Shown here one piece after another: positions 3,509-63,605 of a stretch of 64,000 nucleotides of DNA (positions are counted from its first letter, which is position 1; each line of letters begins with the position of its first letter). The DNA is from a phage. Below the pieces are notes generated by a model. That model made no database searches and was not told the DNA's origin. It saw only the letters and a list, made by a program, of their open reading frames with translations. The stretch lies in the NCBI GenBank assembly GCA_024614665.1, contig GCA_024614665.1_4861.1; one strand, given 5' to 3'. The position numbers and the translations under genes were made by a program.

Positions 3509-3997
3509 TTATTCGTCGTCTTCGTCTTCTTCATCAGTTGCCATCATGGACTTGGCAAACTCTTTACGCAGCTTGCCTTCCAACGCTTTAGACTTCGGAG
3601 AACCGAAACCGTAAGAGATGGACGCTGCCCATTCTTTCTGAGTTGGGTTTTCAGTAACCGGGCGAGAGAACACGGTAGAGAATGCTGCGTTACCGATATC
3701 GAGCGTTAAGTCCAGTGCACCGATTTCGCTATCCGCTTTTGCACGGTCGGCAATCAGACCACCGGCAACGCCACCGAACAGTTCAGTGAAGTTTGCGTCG
3801 TGCTGTCGCAGAGCGTCAGCGTCTTCCAGTGTGAAGCGATAGTCCACATCCCCAACTTTCGTTACCGGGAGCGTGGAAGTATATAGCTCGACGAGCGGCT
3901 CAGCGTTCAGCGCCAGGTCTTCGGACAGGGTTGCTGCCGGCGTGTCCAGTTCAGCGATCAGTTTGTGCAGTGCTTTCATTGAAGTTACTTCAGCCAT
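3509..3997 (-). CDS. hypothetical protein with acidic C-terminal tail
   Basis: 162-aa ORF ending EEDEDDE; AAGGAA SD upstream. Confidence 0.55.
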   Translation of the reverse strand: MAEVTSMKALHKLIAELDTPAATLSEDLALNAEPLVELYTSTLPVTKVGDVDYRFTLEDADALRQHDANFTELFGGVAGGLIADRAKADSEIGALDLTLDIGNAAFSTVFSRPVTENPTQKEWAASISYGFGSPKSKALEGKLRKEFAKSMMATDEEDEDDE

Positions 3998-4017
3998 CTT
4001 AATATTCCTTAAGGTCA

Positions 4018-53490: not shown

Positions 53491-53524
53491 TAAATAAAAG
53501 GTGGTCAGACCCGAAGGTCTGACC
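53491..53524 (-). terminator. putative intrinsic terminator
   Basis: Hairpin GGTCAGACC TTCGG GTCTGACC with a weak T-tract (ACCTTTTATTT) on the minus strand. Confidence 0.4.
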
Positions 53525-54947: not shown

Positions 54948-55441
54948 AAACTTTTTGGGATGATTTTCTCTGCTTCCCTCAGCAGGGTGTCTGGTAAATA
55001 GAATCGATAAGTCTGCTCCGTGTGCTGTAGTCGTTTCTGTAAGTGTATAAAGATTTCCAATCGCTCATGGTAACGTAACCAACCGTTAGCCATCCCTAGG
55101 GGCGGTATCGCAATCCCTCCTTCTAAGTCTTCCCCTAGTCGCGCCAGCGCATCAATGCCGGACGTGACATAGTAAATCTGCGATTTATAGCGAAAATGGG
55201 TTTTAGTAGGAAGGAGTATTACCCCTTCCTCAGGATAACAATAGACCTCACCGATAACGATTTGCTCTTTACGACATTTCTGGCGATAGTCGTTATAAAG
55301 CGATGGGAAGCGTTCTCGGCACGCCAAGGCAATGCCCCTTCCCATCGCACCAACACAGTTAACTGTAACGACCTTGAAGCGCTCAGGCGCGTTAAACAGG
55401 TCGTGGGAGATAATAGCCTCGTCGATCAGTTCGAGTGACAT
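54941..55441 (-). CDS. macrodomain protein, TARG1/DarG-like ADP-ribosyl hydrolase candidate
   Basis: 166 aa; DLFNAPERFKVVTVNCVGAMGRGIALACRERFP and IAIPPLGMANGWLRYHERL parallel human TARG1 segments [34 protein letters not shown] and LSMPRIGCGLDRLQWENV (from memory). Confidence 0.55.
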   Translation of the reverse strand: MSLELIDEAIISHDLFNAPERFKVVTVNCVGAMGRGIALACRERFPSLYNDYRQKCRKEQIVIGEVYCYPEEGVILLPTKTHFRYKSQIYYVTSGIDALARLGEDLEGGIAIPPLGMANGWLRYHERLEIFIHLQKRLQHTEQTYRFYLPDTLLREAEKIIPKSFK

Positions 55442-55640
55442 CTATTGCCATACCCCATTGTGAAATAACCGGAGACTGAAGCAGCGATTCCAGCTCAGTA
55501 AGAACTCTGGCTTTTGCTTCTTCGCGCAACTTACGGACTTCCGGATCAGGTTTGCCTGCGCCCAAATATTGGGGTTCTGTCTGCGGGGTAGGGAAACCAC
55601 AGAAAGAACTAACCATTATTCCGATGATTGTTTTTTGCAT
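55392..55640 (-). CDS. hypothetical small protein with hydrophobic N-terminus
   Basis: 82-aa ORF; overlaps the macrodomain gene start by 50 nt, so one of the two start calls may be wrong. Confidence 0.3.
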   Translation of the reverse strand: MQKTIIGIMVSSFCGFPTPQTEPQYLGAGKPDPEVRKLREEAKARVLTELESLLQSPVISQWGMAIDVTRTDRRGYYLPRPV

Positions 55641-56063
55641 TTAGCTATTCCTTTTCGCCCAGGCATGTACCGCTGACTCGAAACCTTCGTGTTCGATACC
55701 GAGCCGTTTCATTGCCAACATAGTGTTGAGGCTATTCGTAATTTCTTCACGGTAGCGATGGTCATCCATCTTACGCCAACACTTCTCCGGGTCAACGCCT
55801 AAACGCTGGAGTAGATACGCCTCACGCACCATACCAGGCCGCCAGAATTTAGGGCGGGTAATCGCGATTTCAATCATGGGCGTCATGTCCAACGTGTGGG
55901 CGAGAATACTAACCGGCGTTTCCCCAACTTTATCACGTAGCGCTAAACGTAACCACCACTGAACATTTGCTTTGGTTTCAGGTAACAGGTCGTAGAATAA
56001 GGCTGTTTCTTCTTCTGATAAATGATCGTATAGTGATTTTGTTTCGCGAATAGCGGTAACCAT
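55641..56063 (-). CDS. hypothetical protein
   Basis: 140-aa ORF. Confidence 0.5.
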   Translation of the reverse strand: MVTAIRETKSLYDHLSEEETALFYDLLPETKANVQWWLRLALRDKVGETPVSILAHTLDMTPMIEIAITRPKFWRPGMVREAYLLQRLGVDPEKCWRKMDDHRYREEITNSLNTMLAMKRLGIEHEGFESAVHAWAKRNS

Positions 56064-56074
56064 TTTAATGCTCC

Positions 56075-56338
56075 TTAGGGTAAAGTTGCCTCCCAGTCGT
56101 AACGGTGAGGCTCAGGCAGCGTACCAAGCGCTGCTTTAATACACGTACTCAGCGGAGTATCATCGAACGCAACACGCCCGATAGTACCCACGTTGATGTG
56201 TTTTGGATTTACGGGTAAGAACTCCTTCACCCGCTCGTACTCAGCCCAACAGATATCGGTGTTTAAAGCTGAAAACCCAGGACGGTGAAACATAAATAGC
56301 ACTCCTCGCGTAAAAATACCCCACTCATAGTGAGGCAT
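56075..56338 (-). CDS. hypothetical protein
   Basis: 87-aa ORF. Confidence 0.45.
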   Translation of the reverse strand: MPHYEWGIFTRGVLFMFHRPGFSALNTDICWAEYERVKEFLPVNPKHINVGTIGRVAFDDTPLSTCIKAALGTLPEPHRYDWEATLP

Positions 56339-56363
56339 AATCGTAAGGAGTGCTAAAACAGGA

Positions 56364-56852
56364 CTATGCTACCGCAGTCCTTAAAGGTTCATCTGCTTCC
56401 GCAGGAACCTGCTTCGTAAATTCAAGCCATTGTCCGTCTGTAGAGACGGTCTTGCCAAAGCCGCGAGCGGTAAAGAACGCAATACCAGCTTCCTGGCAAG
56501 CGTATATTCCCCCATGCGCACTGGTGAACCGTTCATTCACATCAAGCGCATCAAAAATCTGCGTCATCGTTTTGCGACGGCGTGCCATTTCGGACACGAA
56601 CATCGTACGAATCTTCAGAACCCCGGCGATTACGCGATAGAGACAGTAACCAATAGGGGTGCCCCCTTCCAGAGCAACGCAAGCACGGTTCCCCGCCAAC
56701 AGTTTCTCCAGAGTGAGGTTCGGAATCTCACCTTTTTCGATATGGAGTATGGTACGTTGGTGGTTCAGAAATTTATAATGCAGCCCCAACAGCTGTTTAT
56801 TTTGTGCTTCCGTTAAATCTGAGGATGAGGTAAGAATGACAATTTCGGCCAT
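56364..56852 (-). CDS. hypothetical protein (possible acyltransferase-like fold, unverified)
   Basis: ORF; start placed at ATG 56852 (MAEIVIL) with AGGA SD. Confidence 0.45.
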   Translation of the reverse strand: MAEIVILTSSSDLTEAQNKQLLGLHYKFLNHQRTILHIEKGEIPNLTLEKLLAGNRACVALEGGTPIGYCLYRVIAGVLKIRTMFVSEMARRRKTMTQIFDALDVNERFTSAHGGIYACQEAGIAFFTARGFGKTVSTDGQWLEFTKQVPAEADEPLRTAVA

Positions 56853-57013
56853 GAGCTGAATTCCTAAGTGAGCTTTCACCTGCAATGAAAGCGTGTGACG
56901 AAGAATTGCGTTTGTGTTTTCTTAAGTTTACCGGTAAAGCTTAGCGGTGTATACCGCCACAGATGAAGACCAGTTCTCTATCGGAACTATGTCTTTAATC
57001 AGCAACGACGTTT

Positions 57014-57277
57014 TCAACGTCGTGATGCTGAGGTAACCTTCCGTCGCCACATTCGCTCATGGCGCTTCTGATTACCACGCCAGTCTTCCCCGACTGTACG
57101 TGAAACTGCAAAATCATCCGGCCCGCAGACTTCCGCGATGTCTGCTAAAAGGTTCTTTGAAGACCCTATAGCCATCCCCACGCTAGAAAGAACGATACGC
57201 CGGGTTGGCTCGGCCGCCCCTAAACCCACGACCACGGGATCAGAGACTGTTTCACTGCTACATGTTGTTTCTCCCAC
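57014..57277 (-). CDS. hypothetical protein
   Basis: 87-aa ORF, GTG start with strong AGGAGGG SD; its stop lies inside a long hairpin. Confidence 0.5.
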   Translation of the reverse strand: MGETTCSSETVSDPVVVGLGAAEPTRRIVLSSVGMAIGSSKNLLADIAEVCGPDDFAVSRTVGEDWRGNQKRHERMWRRKVTSASRR

Positions 57278-57295
57278 TTCGTAATTACCCTCCTG

Positions 57296-57391
57296 TTAAA
57301 ACCAACCTTGCGTCAATGCAAGGATTGCGCCTAGGGCGTATGCGCCTGCTCCTAGTATCAGGCTACAGACGATACACCCAATCCATTTCAC
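57296..57391 (-). CDS. mini membrane peptide (31 aa), cassette member e
   Basis: GTG start overlapping the stop of the upstream peptide (TAGTG); sequence KWIGCIVCSLILGAGAYALGAILALTQGWF is one hydrophobic helix. Below the ORF-track size cutoff; found by manual translation. Confidence 0.3.
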   Translation of the reverse strand: MKWIGCIVCSLILGAGAYALGAILALTQGWF

Positions 57392-57522
57392 TAAAATAGC
57401 CACGTTACTACAAACGCTCCGATTGCGCAAACGATAAACGTGATACCAACATCTGTCCAGGTGGCACCGTCATACGCACCCGTTGCAATCATCGCCGCGT
57501 TGACACTATTCACGACTGTCAT
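57391..57522 (-). CDS. mini membrane peptide (43 aa), cassette member d
   Basis: ATG with AAGGGA SD; MTVVNSVNAAMIATGAYDGATWTDVGITFIVCAIGAFVVTWLF; start overlaps the upstream gene end. Confidence 0.35.
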   Translation of the reverse strand: MTVVNSVNAAMIATGAYDGATWTDVGITFIVCAIGAFVVTWLF

Positions 57523-57709
57523 AAGCCGGGTCCCTTAAACGTGGGGGCTTGCTCCACAGATTACCGAAGTAAACCCCTTCTAAGAACACCAAAACAACTA
57601 ATCCCCAAAAGGCAGGCGTGGCACGAGACAAGAAAATACCCAGCAGCACCGCAGTGTGCATTACCACAACTGCCCAAAACTTTAAACGTCGCGGTTTACG
57701 TGTTGCCAT
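57506..57709 (-). CDS. small membrane protein (67 aa, two TM helices), cassette member c
   Basis: Start placed at ATG 57709 (MATRKPRRLKFWAVVVMHTAVLLGIF...) with AAAGGA SD; overlaps neighbours on both sides. Confidence 0.4.
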   Translation of the reverse strand: MATRKPRRLKFWAVVVMHTAVLLGIFLSRATPAFWGLVVLVFLEGVYFGNLWSKPPRLRDPAYDSRE

Positions 57710-57800
57710 GGAATGCCCATCCTTTCGTGCGGATAATCCAATCCCAGGCACCACGAATTAACCACAGCGCAATACCGGTTAGTACAATACCTTCGATCAT
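57696..57800 (-). CDS. mini membrane peptide (34 aa), cassette member b
   Basis: ATG overlaps the TGA of the upstream gene (ATGA); MIEGIVLTGIALWLIRGAWDWIIRTKGWAFHGNT. Confidence 0.3.
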   Translation of the reverse strand: MIEGIVLTGIALWLIRGAWDWIIRTKGWAFHGNT

Positions 57801-57988
57801 GACCGTTCCCCTACATCTCGCCACTCACAACGTGTGTCGAACAGACGTTCTTTAAGAGCAGCAGCTAAATAAACAACCGCAGCGATAACCACTACGGTTG
57901 CACAAAAGGAGAGGTACAGTACCATCACAACAAACTGAAGGAACTGAAAACCCCACCAAGCCCATAAGCGCCAACCTTTATGATGCAT
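57797..57988 (-). CDS. small membrane protein (63 aa, two TM helices), cassette member a
   Basis: ATG lies within the last codons of the SbcC-like gene (11-nt overlap); hydrophobic WWGFQFLQFVVMVLYLSFCATVVVIAAVVYLAAAL. Confidence 0.4.
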   Translation of the reverse strand: MHHKGWRLWAWWGFQFLQFVVMVLYLSFCATVVVIAAVVYLAAALKERLFDTRCEWRDVGERS

Positions 57989-60488
57989 ATTTGATTATTA
58001 CCCCTTCGTTATAAACCGGTGGAAGCGTTACACCTTCTGGCTCGACGACACAGTAGGTGGCTTCGTTAAGTTTAGAATGAACTTCCGCTTCATGCGAAAC
58101 GACCAGTAATTGAGAAAACTCTCCCGACAACGCCAACGATTTAATGAAGTTAACTAATCGGTTTTTGTGTTCTTCATCCATGCCTTCAGATGGTTCATCC
58201 AATAACAAAGGATAGTTTTGTAAACCAAGCGCTTTATACGCCGTTAAACGAAACATCATGTTAAAGATAATACGCTGTGCTTTTGAACCTTTCTTCACAT
58301 CCGGTACCAGTTCTACATGGTCTTTTAATCGCACAGGGAACGTGTAGTCCAGATCCCCGTCGGTTAGATCGCACGGAATAACCTGCATCGGATATGCCCA
58401 CACCATTTCGATATACCGATTCATTAAATCCATGATGCGGGTAATCGCAGCGTAGAAGTAACGTCTCAGTAAACCTTTTTCAGGAGAAACCGCATTAATA
58501 ATCAGTCTGGCATGGTGGTGTTCTTTGAGCAACTCAGCTTGCTCTTTTTCCAGTTCCGCTAAACGTGCAATAGCCCCTTCCATTTGACGAAACCGTTCAC
58601 GAGCTGAAGTATACGCATCGAGCTTCGCTTCGCGGCGGTTTAACAACTCACGAACTACGACGTTGTTAACGGAGATGTTCATTTCCGATACCAGATGTTC
58701 GTAGCCCTTTTGGAAACGTTCGATTGCTTCTTTGGTTTGTTGCAGTTGGGTGGTTTCGCGTTCCAGCTCATTGGCTTGTCTGCGGTATTCTATCAGTCGA
58801 CGGTTAGCCCCGTCTAGTTGTGAACGGATATGTTCAATTTTCTGGCTCAGAGCACCATCAACATTACCTACTGCGGCAACAGCCTCTTGCCATTCCCGTT
58901 CCGCTGTTGCAAGCTTCGCTGATTGACGCAGATACATCATGGCCGAATCTAACTCTTCGGTAAAGGCACGTGCAATGGCACCATATCGATCCCGCGCCGT
59001 GGTGAAGATATCCAGCTCCTGTAGTTTACGGAAAAACAAACCGACAACGGGATGATTGGAATACGACATGACAATTTCGCGAATCGTACGTAGGCTACGG
59101 ACGTCCTCTTCAATCTCTTTGCGGTCACGCAAAAGACTATCCATTTCGTCTTTCAGCTGTTTTTTCCAACCTTCATTATCGTTGATGGCCTTTTCAATTT
59201 CAGGTAACGACTTACGAATCCCAGGACGGAAACGGTGGTTACACTGTGGACAATCAACTTCTGCAGTTTCTAAGAAGTGTTGACGGTCGTGGTATAAACC
59301 GTGTAGCACATTCTCACAACGTTGCAACTTTTCAGATAGACCCGCAGAGGTTAAATCCATACCCTGTAAACGCTTCTCTAACGCTCCTAGGCGCTCTGTT
59401 GTCTTTAACTGGTCCAGATGCATGGACAACGGTAAATTCCAGTTACAGGCGTCGTTTAACGCGTTCTGAATGCTATCCACGTCGATGCGGGTACCTTCAA
59501 ACAGAGCCGGGAACATCCAGTTCTGTTGGAACGTTGCCAGTTCCTGTTTTAAGCTGTCGATTGTTTGTTTTAGACCGGTATGGTTACGCATCAGATACGC
59601 TTGACGCGACTCCTCATCCAGTAGCTGTGACAACTCTTTATTGTACATGTTGCATTCAGTTTCAGCGGAGGCAGCTTGCTCACGCCAGGCAACCACACGA
59701 CTTTGAAACTCGTTAATCAGTTCGTCAGAAGGCAGAACGCCATAACGTTCCATAATGAGTTTTACAGCCGGTTGCAACGAAGCAATGCGTTTCCGGATAC
59801 TGTCAACCGAAACAGCGTTATCTAAACCGGGCCTTGCTTCAATTGTGCGGTTTAATTCTTGAAGCTCAGCATCGAGTTCTTTCAAACGAACTTCTAAACG
59901 TGCACGATCTTCTTCATCGTCAACGACGCGCATTTTTGCTTCGCCGATTTTTCGTCCGGTGTGTTCGATGGCCCCGCTTAAACTGGAAGCGAGTTTACGC
60001 AAACGTCGATAGCAGCCAACAACGTACGTCAGATCAGATTCTGACATTAACGTAAACCATTTACGACGAACTTCGGTAGTGGCGTCAGTTAATAAGGTCT
60101 CACCATTAATTAACTCTTTGATTTCTTTGGTGATTCCGGTTAATTGCTCCACCATGGAGTTGTAAACTTTGGCGTTTACCGAGTCCACAATGGGGACGCC
60201 TTTGGTGATATTGAAAATACTACAAGACAAAGAAGACCCACGTCGCAGGACTTCAAACTTAAGACGGTCGTCCCCGACTAACGCGTAGTTAGTGTAAGAA
60301 CCACCTTCACGGAATTCAGATTTTGCTGGAGCTAAGGGGAGAAAAACAGATAGGAGGCTTGTTTTACCGCAACCATTCCCACCAAGGATAATGGTAACGG
60401 TTGATTTAAGGGTGAAATCAAACGTTTCGATTTCATGTAACCCCATGCCGGTAAATCCTTTCAAAATGATACGTTCGACCTTGAGCAT
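57978..60488 (-). CDS. Rad50/SbcC-like SMC-family ATPase
   Basis: 836 aa; N-terminal Walker A GGNGCGKTSLL, long central coiled-coil-like region with CPQC zinc-hook-like motif, C-terminal Walker B LLLDEPSEGMD and H-loop-like VVSHE. Confidence 0.6.
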   Translation of the reverse strand: MLKVERIILKGFTGMGLHEIETFDFTLKSTVTIILGGNGCGKTSLLSVFLPLAPAKSEFREGGSYTNYALVGDDRLKFEVLRRGSSLSCSIFNITKGVPIVDSVNAKVYNSMVEQLTGITKEIKELINGETLLTDATTEVRRKWFTLMSESDLTYVVGCYRRLRKLASSLSGAIEHTGRKIGEAKMRVVDDEEDRARLEVRLKELDAELQELNRTIEARPGLDNAVSVDSIRKRIASLQPAVKLIMERYGVLPSDELINEFQSRVVAWREQAASAETECNMYNKELSQLLDEESRQAYLMRNHTGLKQTIDSLKQELATFQQNWMFPALFEGTRIDVDSIQNALNDACNWNLPLSMHLDQLKTTERLGALEKRLQGMDLTSAGLSEKLQRCENVLHGLYHDRQHFLETAEVDCPQCNHRFRPGIRKSLPEIEKAINDNEGWKKQLKDEMDSLLRDRKEIEEDVRSLRTIREIVMSYSNHPVVGLFFRKLQELDIFTTARDRYGAIARAFTEELDSAMMYLRQSAKLATAEREWQEAVAAVGNVDGALSQKIEHIRSQLDGANRRLIEYRRQANELERETTQLQQTKEAIERFQKGYEHLVSEMNISVNNVVVRELLNRREAKLDAYTSARERFRQMEGAIARLAELEKEQAELLKEHHHARLIINAVSPEKGLLRRYFYAAITRIMDLMNRYIEMVWAYPMQVIPCDLTDGDLDYTFPVRLKDHVELVPDVKKGSKAQRIIFNMMFRLTAYKALGLQNYPLLLDEPSEGMDEEHKNRLVNFIKSLALSGEFSQLLVVSHEAEVHSKLNEATYCVVEPEGVTLPPVYNEGVIIKYAS

Positions 60489-60508
60489 GTTTGCCTTCTA
60501 ATGAGAAA

Positions 60509-60521
60509 GTATTAGTCGTTC
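60509..60521 (-). promoter_or_regulatory. variant of the TTAATCGACTAT upstream element
   Basis: Minus-strand order: terminator, GAACGACTAATAC, GAAGG SD, ATG of the SbcC-like gene. Confidence 0.35.
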
Positions 60522-60540
60522 ATATCCAAAAGGTCATGCG

Positions 60541-60573
60541 TAAAAAAGAAGAAATGGAACCCCGAAGGGTTCC
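60541..60573 (-). terminator. intrinsic terminator
   Basis: Hairpin GGAACCC TTCG GGGTTCC followed on the minus strand by ATTTCTTCTTTTTTAC. Confidence 0.6.
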
Positions 60574-60584
60574 AGAGAGGAGAG

Positions 60585-61211
60585 TTATTGCGGAATAAAC
60601 TTACGGTGTCCGAGTGATTCCCAAAAACTATCGGTGCGCTCTTTGGTTAATTCATACCACGCACGCCCGGCATCAGAATCGACAACCTTTAACGTTTCAG
60701 TAAGCAGGAATTTGAACAGTTCAGCGCTACGACCGGGTGCTACACCGTCGAGATATATCGGAATTAAATAACCGGTTTTGATTTCTTCGTACGGTTGCGA
60801 TTGGTGCTGACCAACAACCCAGGCGTCAGCCGCGCTACCGACCAAAGTGGTGTTTACAGTTAACTCATCAGAAATCCAGTTAACGGTATCAGCCATTATT
60901 GAATCGCCATTGACGTAGAAGAAAACTAAACGTTTAGGTTGCTCCACCGAACCGGCCAAATCTAATGCAGTAGTTCCGGTGAAGATCGTATTATTGGGAT
61001 TACGTTCTGCAATAGGTAGAGCAAACCACGCTTCGAGCTGTTCCCAGCTACGCGGCAGTGCTTCTTTAAACCACTTCACCAATCGCGGGTATTCCAGAAA
61101 CCCTTCTACCTCTTCTTCCATCAGATTGATACGCAGTTTGGTATCCTGACGATTCGCTTTCTGACATGTCACCATGTCATCGATGAAACGAATCAGGGTA
61201 ATTTCGTTCAT
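60585..61211 (-). CDS. hypothetical protein
   Basis: 208-aa ORF; no Mre11/SbcD phosphoesterase motifs. Confidence 0.5.
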   Translation of the reverse strand: MNEITLIRFIDDMVTCQKANRQDTKLRINLMEEEVEGFLEYPRLVKWFKEALPRSWEQLEAWFALPIAERNPNNTIFTGTTALDLAGSVEQPKRLVFFYVNGDSIMADTVNWISDELTVNTTLVGSAADAWVVGQHQSQPYEEIKTGYLIPIYLDGVAPGRSAELFKFLLTETLKVVDSDAGRAWYELTKERTDSFWESLGHRKFIPQ

Positions 61212-63217: not shown

Positions 63218-63605
63218 TTTTAATATCTCCACGATTAAGGGTGATGCGACCGACGAGCACATCGTTGTGATAAAAACTCACAGCAACCAGATCTGGCAAT
63301 TCCAACGGCGATACACTGACCGAGGTGACTTTTGGTTGATTGCACGATATGTCGATTAATCGCTGATACATTTTCAATTTCTTATCAGCGATAACCAGCC
63401 CTGTGCAGTTCTTACCGTCCGTCAGTCTGTAGATTTGTAACTGTTCGACCTCACGCATCAGTTCCGGTTTTTCATTCGGTGCAATGGCATAATCCGAATC
63501 AGCTGATGTGTATTCAGTCACGTCTGGCTTATCGAAAGCATAAGTTGCTGCAATACCACATGCGGCCAGAACTACTACTGCTTGTAAGAACTTCTTGATA
63601 GTCAT
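63204..63605 (-). CDS. lipoprotein
   Basis: 133 aa; signal peptide with lipobox VLAACG. Confidence 0.5.
   Translation of the reverse strand: MTIKKFLQAVVVLAACGIAATYAFDKPDVTEYTSADSDYAIAPNEKPELMREVEQLQIYRLTDGKNCTGLVIADKKLKMYQRLIDISCNQPKVTSVSVSPLELPDLVAVSFYHNDVLVGRITLNRGDIKNEMQ
63227..63240 (-). promoter_or_regulatory. variant of the TTAATCGACTAT upstream element
   Basis: Minus-strand CCTTAATCGTGGAGATATTAAAA ATG. Confidence 0.3.

Follow-up and report, generated by a model that had tools for sequence, protein, structure and literature searches.

A conserved cassette of overlapping genes for predicted mini membrane proteins behind the SbcC-like gene of SPN3US-like jumbo phages

Small genes for membrane-directed proteins have been described in several phages, and those of T4 and of phage lysis systems come closest to the locus analysed here. 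In T4, the open reading frame (ORF) 47.1, of 46 amino acids (aa) and predicted to encode a membrane protein, is a tiny hydrophobic ORF that overlaps a nuclease-subunit gene, gene 47, by 4 nucleotides (nt). The T4 genes imm (83 aa, two transmembrane domains (TMDs); between genes 43 and 42) and sp (by 61.4/41) encode small accessory proteins directed to the membrane or periplasm, and both lie in early/middle replication-recombination clusters. Class II holins and pinholins, such as S68 of phage 21, are 60–70 aa long and form a two-helix hairpin whose C-terminus is charged and cytoplasmic, and multi-component lysis regulators are found in phage P1 (lydA–E) and phage Mu (gp19–25). Here we describe five consecutive ORFs, designated P1–P5, that occupy positions 57988–57296 on the minus strand of a phage DNA stretch of 64,000 nt (GenBank assembly GCA_024614665.1, contig GCA_024614665.1_4861.1; hereafter, the window) and that follow an SbcC-like gene without any gap.

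The region is 99% identical to Salmonella phage SaP7 and shares 92–96% identity with SPN3US and about 30 further Seoulvirus genomes, which assigns the window to a Seoulvirus, an SPN3US-like nucleus-forming jumbo phage. SPN3US itself, a jumbo phage of 240 kb, belongs to the Chimalliviridae and forms a nucleus, and its DNA, like that of Asesino, replicates within a proteinaceous phage nucleus (PMC13282480). The gene in front of the five ORFs is the following:

SbcC-like gene: 57978–60488, minus strand; SMC/Rad50-type nuclease subunit of 836 aa; phrog_77, E=4e-96; 99.8% identical to SPN3US gp186

In SPN3US, gp186 is essential, as known from amber mutants, and the SbcD gene (gp27) is distant from the SbcC-like gene (PMC5105663). 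In the same work, Thomas et al. (2016) described gp187 as a 63-aa protein for which a transmembrane domain is predicted, encoded directly behind SbcC, and likened it to T4 gp47.1, for which Miller et al. had suggested a role in anchoring gp46/47 to the membrane (PMC5105663). What is already known thus comprises P1–P4 as PHROG families, three genes in the SPN3US RefSeq record and the discussion of gp187 in PMC5105663. What appears to be new is the conserved, modular and coupled five-gene cassette as a unit, of which no description turned up in the literature searched.

Five overlapping ORFs and their conservation

The five ORFs are listed here in their order of reading:

P1 (SPN3US gp187): 57988–57797, minus strand; 63 aa, ATG start; phrog_16515, E=6e-29
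P2 (no SPN3US RefSeq entry): 57800–57696, minus strand; 34 aa, ATG start; phrog_13448, E=4e-9
P3 (SPN3US gp188): 57709–57506, minus strand; 67 aa, ATG start; phrog_18173, E=3e-37
P4 (SPN3US gp189): 57522–57391, minus strand; 43 aa, ATG start; phrog_29196, E=8e-28
P5 (no SPN3US RefSeq entry): 57403–57296, minus strand; 35 aa, GTG start at 57403 (in an earlier definition GTG 57391, 31 aa)

A first reading of the window (the original prediction) had proposed five tandem small minus-strand ORFs, and their coordinates and frames are present as described there. The cassette does begin inside the last SbcC codons, with the P1 start 11 nt ahead of the SbcC stop, and each of the five frames differs from those of its neighbours. 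Overlaps at the SbcC/P1, P1/P2, P2/P3, P3/P4 and P4/P5 junctions measure 11, 4 (ATGA), 14, 17 and 13 nt, respectively, the last of them for a P5 that begins at 57403; if P5 starts at 57391, it is reduced to 1 nt (TAGTG). Seven of nine Seoulvirus genomes have an ATG 12 nt upstream of GTG 57391, a position at which the window and SaP7 have a GTG (57403), and Shine-Dalgarno (SD)-like pairing, measured in the window only, is stronger there (-6.4 kcal/mol at 57403 vs -1.5 at 57391). The P5 start is therefore most likely GTG 57403, giving a protein of 35 aa. Consequently, the predicted lengths of 63, 34, 67 and 43 aa stand and the 31 aa given for P5 probably do not, and within the predicted 1–17 nt of overlap the values 4, 14 and 17 hold, with 13 nt more likely than 1 nt for P4/P5. 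Complementarity of the SD type at all five starts falls within the best ~13% of random positions, with a pairing energy of -8.0 kcal/mol at the P1 start.

A scan of IMG/VR with the SbcC-like protein yielded 11 jumbo-phage loci, ten with an SbcC 50–63% identical and an eleventh (L013) that is SPN3US itself. Between the SbcC gene and a GNAT acetyltransferase gene, all 11 loci carry two to five small hydrophobic ORFs whose junctions overlap or abut; the GNAT gene is always present, and P6, a gene located after P5 and described below, is found in 6 of the 10 more distant loci. Membership of the cassette differs between phage groups:

Seoulvirus: P1–P5
Erwinia phage pEa_SNUABM_29: P1, P2, P4, P5
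Asesino/PhiEaH2-like (L007/L008): P1, P2, P3, P5
L009–L011 and L017: P1, P2, P4
L012: P1-like and P2-like ORFs
Huxley/ChrisDB/Caitlin-like (L014–L016): P1-like and P2-like ORFs, a two-helix ORF in the P3 position without significant similarity to P3, and P5 (in L014 just a P5-like ORF, below significance)

Judged by sequence, P1 and P2 are the invariant core and P3, P4 and P5 exchangeable add-ons, P2 being recognisably homologous across all groups (an alignment of 13 homologues). Since membership of P3, P4 and P5 varies, these comparisons describe a modular accessory cassette rather than an obligatory five-subunit machine. The P1 start lies inside the last SbcC codons, or within a few nt of the stop, in all cassette-bearing relatives. 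Overlapping junctions are the rule in every relative and their lengths vary, which points to selection for coupling and compaction and not for a particular junction sequence. The conservation of reading frames that the original prediction had looked to in related genomes was thus found, together with that of the overlapping junctions. In a phiKZ-like phage, pVa-21 and Ea35-70, the SbcC orthologue is not followed by the cassette, and a Derbicusvirus has a 109-aa protein with two TMDs and a 28-aa ORF after SbcC. On this sequence comparison, only the SPN3US-like clade among nucleus-forming jumbo phages has the cassette. Moreover, when P1, P3, P4 and a profile of P2 served as queries against sets of 5.8 billion and 1.84 billion proteins, just 6–17 clusters came back, all of them relatives of the same kind and none with a domain or an informative name; those with a source name are phage or phage-like records, and most lie on contigs of 170–250 kb. 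The P2 profile collected 17 clusters of this sort, and P4 had just 6 close clusters among the 5.8 billion proteins. P1–P4 match PHROG profiles of unknown function over nearly the full profile; for P5 there is no PHROG family (best match phrog_8626, E=0.02). According to BLASTP, P1–P5 are not paralogous to one another.

All five frames are intact in nine Seoulvirus genomes, the sole apparent frameshift being in P3 of Lh1B, in a record with ambiguous bases. Among these genomes, variable sites at the first, second and third codon positions number 4/2/15 in P1, 1/1/7 in P2, 4/4/13 in P3 and 6/2/13 in P4. SPAsTU and Erwinia phage pEa_SNUABM_29 served as divergent comparators (68–75% nucleotide identity over the cassette region; for pEa_SNUABM_29 the alignable part is ~34% of the region, at 75% identity). 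Relative to these two, dN/dS by the Nei-Gojobori method was 0.22–0.29 for P1, 0.08–0.13 for P2, 0.19–0.21 for P3, 0.12–0.16 for P4 and 0.24–0.65 for P5, with values up to 0.72 for P5 across divergent pairs; P2 is the most conserved of the five. The conserved C-terminus of P5, ALTQGWF, is preserved through other codons (ctc act caa ggc tgg ttc in L015 vs ttg acg caa ggt tgg ttt in the window). Overlapping the last P5 codons, at 57323–57306 on the minus strand, there is a 6-bp hairpin (CCTTGC...GCAAGG) followed by TTGGTTTT, which is conserved among Seoulviruses and may be a weak attenuator or have no function. A terminator formed by this hairpin and T-run was considered as the explanation for the conservation of ALTQGWF and rejected as the main cause: in L015 and L016 the codons differ and there is no equivalent hairpin, yet the motif is retained, so that it is conserved as protein.

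The opposite reading, that the frames are open by chance or that frameshifts broke them out of a once larger membrane-protein gene, could draw on the different frames of adjacent ORFs, on genome records that annotate none of the five, and on P5, with its lack of a PHROG family and its weak codon-position bias within Seoulvirus. It is at odds with the purifying selection seen in the proposed frames, with the retention of separate ORFs in relatives with no more than ~50% SbcC identity, and with the searches of 5.8 billion or 1.84 billion proteins, which returned no fused full-length homologue. As a control for chance, 4.5% of the ORFs of 30–70 aa in the six frames of the window have a 15-residue Kyte-Doolittle value (KD15) ≥ 2.0; a single place in the window, the cassette, has five hydrophobic small ORFs abutting in a chain, and 20 shuffles of the strand gave chains of 1–2. 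We consider an origin by chance or decay highly improbable. P1–P4 are very probably real expressed genes, and P5, the least certain of the five, is probably one too.

Predicted membrane character and the transcription unit

P1, P3, P4 and P5 each contain a segment of 17–21 residues with a negative summed Hessa insertion energy and a Kyte-Doolittle value (19-residue window) above 1.6. The one or two hydrophobic helices per ORF claimed in the original prediction are borne out for these four by both scales, and are marginal for P2, which is predicted to form a marginal transmembrane or interfacial helix. In P1, a Trp-rich N-terminus precedes a hydrophobic helix of ~38 residues and a charged C-terminal tail (KERLFDTRCEWRDVGERS) with a conserved RCEWR motif. 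The single-sequence AlphaFold2 model shows one continuous helix (residues 4–62, pLDDT 86), and the 38-residue stretch may correspond to one span plus an interfacial segment or to a tight hairpin. P2 has a short N-terminal hydrophobic helix and then a conserved amphipathic segment, W-x-W-I-I-(R/K)-x-K-G-W-A-F. P3 combines a basic N-terminus, a two-helix hairpin and a charged tail (SKPPRLRDPAYDSRE), with a conserved C-terminal PP(R/L)LRDPAYD(S/N)RE, and was modelled from its single sequence as a helix-turn-helix hairpin (H7–28/H32–53, pLDDT 78); the AlphaFold2 models of P1 and P3 contain helices only and are useful for the P3 hairpin. P4 is devoid of basic residues, its N-terminal half is acidic and its hydrophobic helix, at the C-terminal end, reaches the last residue, and P5 consists of one hydrophobic helix with small-xxx-small motifs ahead of its conserved end. 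Charged C-terminal tails are thus found in P1 and P3, P4 and P5 end inside the hydrophobic helix, and the P2 tail is short and amphipathic. In total, the cassette encodes ~6–7 predicted membrane helices, and P1–P5 are probably membrane proteins.

The cassette lies within a terminator-delimited unit whose ends are marked by these elements:

TTCG-tetraloop terminator: 60574–60555, minus strand; directly upstream of the SbcC unit
Promoter-like element TTTTTACG-N15-TATG: 60545–60521, minus strand; straight after the terminator at 60574–60555 and conserved in nine relatives
Strong intrinsic TTCG-tetraloop terminator: 53524–53503, minus strand; after gp199, closing the unit

No terminator of comparable quality was found between 60555 and 53524. 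The resulting unit of ~7 kb comprises SbcC, P1–P5, P6, the GNAT gene, four small genes (including one for a macro-domain protein), an SLT endolysin gene and gp199. The pattern TTTTTAC(G/A)-N14-17-TATG occurs ~35–45 nt before the SbcC start in the window and in nine relatives (loci L007–L017, at about 3870–4000), and has four matches in the window vs one expected, the others being at 56315–56291, 41336–41312 and 37967–37943. In phiKZ, middle promoters carry AAanTTACc centred near -24, and late promoters, as well as some middle ones, carry TATG with G at +1 (PMC4666361). Judged by its likeness to this layout, the unit is probably transcribed by a phage RNA polymerase as a message of the middle class, from a start that we infer. 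Sigma-70 promoter motifs were as numerous as in shuffled sequence, and have no bearing on a phage that encodes RNA polymerases of its own. As there is neither intergenic space nor a terminator between the genes, P1–P5 likely share the SbcC mRNA.

One of the four small genes has a recognisable counterpart in other chimalliviruses:

Macro-domain gene (SPN3US gp196): 55441–54941, minus strand, inside the SbcC unit; Pfam Macro, 21.7 bits, just below the 22-bit cut-off

AdfM, a macro-domain anti-DarT factor of chimalliviruses, has been described for Asesino and phiKZ (PMC13309987), and from its sequence gp196 is probably the counterpart of this factor. Just upstream of the SbcC unit, at 63605–61896 on the minus strand, four consecutive genes encode signal-peptide-like proteins of 127–178 aa, one of them with a possible lipobox (LAACG) and two of them paralogous (phrog_8968/phrog_17072 cross-hits). 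Together with the cassette they make up a 6-kb stretch rich in envelope-directed proteins.

Possible roles of the cassette

The overall explanation that we prefer, with a probability of roughly 0.4, is that P1–P5 form an accessory inner-membrane mini-protein module, probably of the middle class, that acts on the host envelope. In such a scheme, a middle-type TTTTTAC-N15-TATG promoter would start an mRNA that carries SbcC and P1–P5, and translation would be coupled through the SD-like sequence that each start has inside the preceding gene. In the replication (pre-late) phase, the products would enter the cytoplasmic membrane of the host and would alter the inner membrane of the infected cell to the benefit of the phage. 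The effect could be to exclude superinfecting phages in the manner of T4 Imm/Sp, or to protect against host functions that act at the membrane, and would be neither lysis nor DNA repair. The assignment to exclusion or anti-defence, made by analogy, is the weakest step and has to be considered doubtful. An envelope role is favoured because the cassette is clade-specific and modular, as is typical of host-interaction genes, because an AdfM-type macro-domain gene shares the unit and the four signal-peptide-protein genes lie upstream, and because T4 likewise embeds imm and sp among replication genes. Host takeover and superinfection exclusion, which the original prediction named as typical functions of such arrays, would be compatible with this context. 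Nevertheless, imm and sp are single genes and the window has an overlapping array, and exclusion is a demonstrated activity of imm and sp and a proposed one of the cassette.

A number of observations weigh against this explanation. P1–P5 gave no significant BLASTP match to T4 Imm, no hit above threshold in Pfam, no match in PADLOC and, with these three methods, no homology to any exclusion, defence or anti-defence protein. The promoter assignment depends on the analogy with phiKZ, and one of the four matches to the promoter-like pattern probably overlaps a start region. At the level of single products, the hydrophobic run of P2 extends over just ~12–15 residues (dG +0.6 over 15 aa), and P5 has 4/1/3 variable sites by codon position within Seoulvirus, with little third-position bias, and a dN/dS of 1.39 in its closest pair, which differs at just 5 nucleotide positions. 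The proteins gp187–189 are absent from the supplements of two mass-spectrometry papers on SPN3US, although the topic of these papers is capsid assembly and maturation, so their absence says little. Finally, the presence of the SLT endolysin gene in the same terminator-delimited unit keeps a role in lysis alive. The genes that bear on such a role are the following:

SLT-domain endolysin gene (SPN3US gp198): 54842–54120, minus strand; product begins with the hydrophobic segment MFRTILFLLVAVTTFNSNA
gp200: 53478–53212, minus strand, right after the terminator at 53524–53503; 88 aa, two hydrophobic helices and a basic C-terminal tail, no PHROG match
i-spanin/o-spanin-like pair (SPN3US gp204/gp205): 49929–48925, minus strand; hypothetical proteins in SPN3US, PHROGs of unknown function

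One or more peptides, chiefly P1 or P3, might act as holin, pinholin, antiholin or releasin for this endolysin. With 67 aa, two helices in a hairpin, a basic N-terminus and charges in its C-terminal tail, P3 resembles the class II holins and pinholins in size and layout, and so possibly does P1, which also has a charged tail. Moreover, no strong terminator separates the cassette from the endolysin gene, no holin is annotated in SPN3US, and the signal- or signal-anchor-release (SAR)-like N-terminal segment of gp198 suggests, on sequence grounds, a secreted or SAR-type enzyme rather than a cytoplasmic one. However, class II holin and pinholin genes are expected next to those of endolysins and/or spanins, and the cassette does not adjoin such genes: eight genes and ~2.4 kb lie between P5 and the endolysin gene, and the spanin-like pair is ~7.4 kb off. 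The first protein of this pair has 171 aa with one TMD (residues 35–53) and a Pro-rich tail, and the second has 159 aa and begins with MKLFLAAILVLLLTGC (LLTGC lipobox). By position, gp200, with its two TMDs beside the endolysin unit, is a closer holin candidate than the cassette. In phiKZ, the experimentally defined lysis cassette is contiguous, with holin, regulator, spanin and endolysin genes adjacent to one another, and the holin belongs to class III, with a large cytoplasmic domain (PMC12894885). In addition, P1–P5 match no holin family of Pfam or PHROG, the upstream promoter looks middle-type and not late-only, and the composition of the cassette varies among phages that retain the endolysin. 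A function in lysis control thus appears unlikely.

Even less likely is that P1, perhaps with P2, anchors or regulates the SbcC(D) nuclease at the membrane, in a fixed ratio brought about by translational coupling, an idea already raised for gp187 (PMC5105663). The coupling of the P1 start to the SbcC end in all cassette-bearing relatives, the overlapping ORF 47.1 of T4 and the two-TMD protein directly after SbcC in a Derbicusvirus speak for it. On the other hand, a membrane-tethered recombination nuclease fits poorly with DNA replication in a proteinaceous nucleus (PMC13282480), the SbcD gene is distant, and the SbcC orthologues of the phiKZ-like phage, pVa-21 and Ea35-70 have no such neighbours. 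Such a tether would also leave two to five different peptides of variable membership unexplained. Moreover, P1–P5 have no BLASTP similarity to T4 47.1 (best E = 0.9) or to T4 46.1 and 46.2. The likeness between the loci has limits as well, because 47.1 is a single ORF upstream of the SbcD-like gene 47, whereas the window has five ORFs downstream of an SbcC-like gene, with 11 nt of overlap between P1 and SbcC instead of 4. The role of 47.1 as membrane anchor is itself an unproven suggestion.

An envelope-directed accessory module hence remains our preferred explanation for the cassette. A bolder proposal, which we regard as improbable, is that the P1 and P2 core and the exchangeable P3–P5 constitute an undescribed modular hetero-oligomeric inner-membrane complex, specific to SPN3US-like phages and made in a fixed ratio with SbcC, that serves a new function. 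This function may be, for example, the neutralisation of membrane-acting abortive-infection effectors, the exclusion of competitor phages or the linking of a membrane-bound step of chimallivirus infection to DNA processing. If this were true, peptides of 34–67 aa would be the building blocks of a phage anti-defence or exclusion factor of a new class.

Annotation of the cassette and its neighbour P6

Genome records differ widely in how many of the five genes they contain. P1, P3 and P4 are annotated in the SPN3US RefSeq record, P2, P3 and P4 in SPFM4, P1, P3, P4 and P5 in Lh1B, all five in SPAsTU, one in SPLA1a and none in Proteus phage 7 and JN03. The original prediction had called such genes rarely annotated; this agrees with records that carry between none and five of them, and overstates the case given the three genes in SPN3US RefSeq, the four with PHROG families and the treatment of gp187 in PMC5105663. 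The PHROG membership of P1–P4 implies that some phage genomes already list them as genes.

The gene that follows the cassette is another small one:

P6: 57277–57014, minus strand, 18 nt past P5; 87 aa, GTG start, SD-like pairing -10.8 kcal/mol; phrog_15402, E=9e-12

Its product has a conserved EDWRGxxxxHER motif and a basic tail, and its Hessa sums are positive, so it is not predicted to be a membrane protein. P6 accompanies the cassette in most relatives, with homologues in L004, L005, L007, L008, L012 and L014–L016, and shows a dN/dS of 0.24 vs the Erwinia phage. It has no entry in SPN3US RefSeq, where a 40-aa gp190 is annotated instead, in another frame; gp190 is probably spurious. In SPN3US and Lh1B, P6 runs 5 codons further than in the window, and the window's stop is read through in the other six aligned Seoulviruses as well. 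A structured RNA in the ~400 nt after P5, where two frames looked conserved, was considered and rejected, as the conserved protein P6 offers a better explanation; Rfam, scanned over 55000–61000 at E ≤ 1, gave no match to an RNA family.

As a class, small membrane proteins of phages are under-annotated, as illustrated by near-identical genomes whose records carry from none to all five of these genes. SPN3US RefSeq misses P2, P5 and P6, and the PHROG families do not represent the genes as one cassette with a modular composition and a constant place after SbcC. SPN3US serves as a genetic model of the nucleus-forming jumbo phages. A clean map of this unit, which contains an essential gene, therefore helps the design of mutants, as P1 will be hit by amber and deletion alleles placed close to the 3' end of gene 186. 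Should the cassette act in exclusion, anti-defence or the timing of lysis, it would add a clade-specific envelope module to a chimallivirus biology that has so far been focused on the nucleus.

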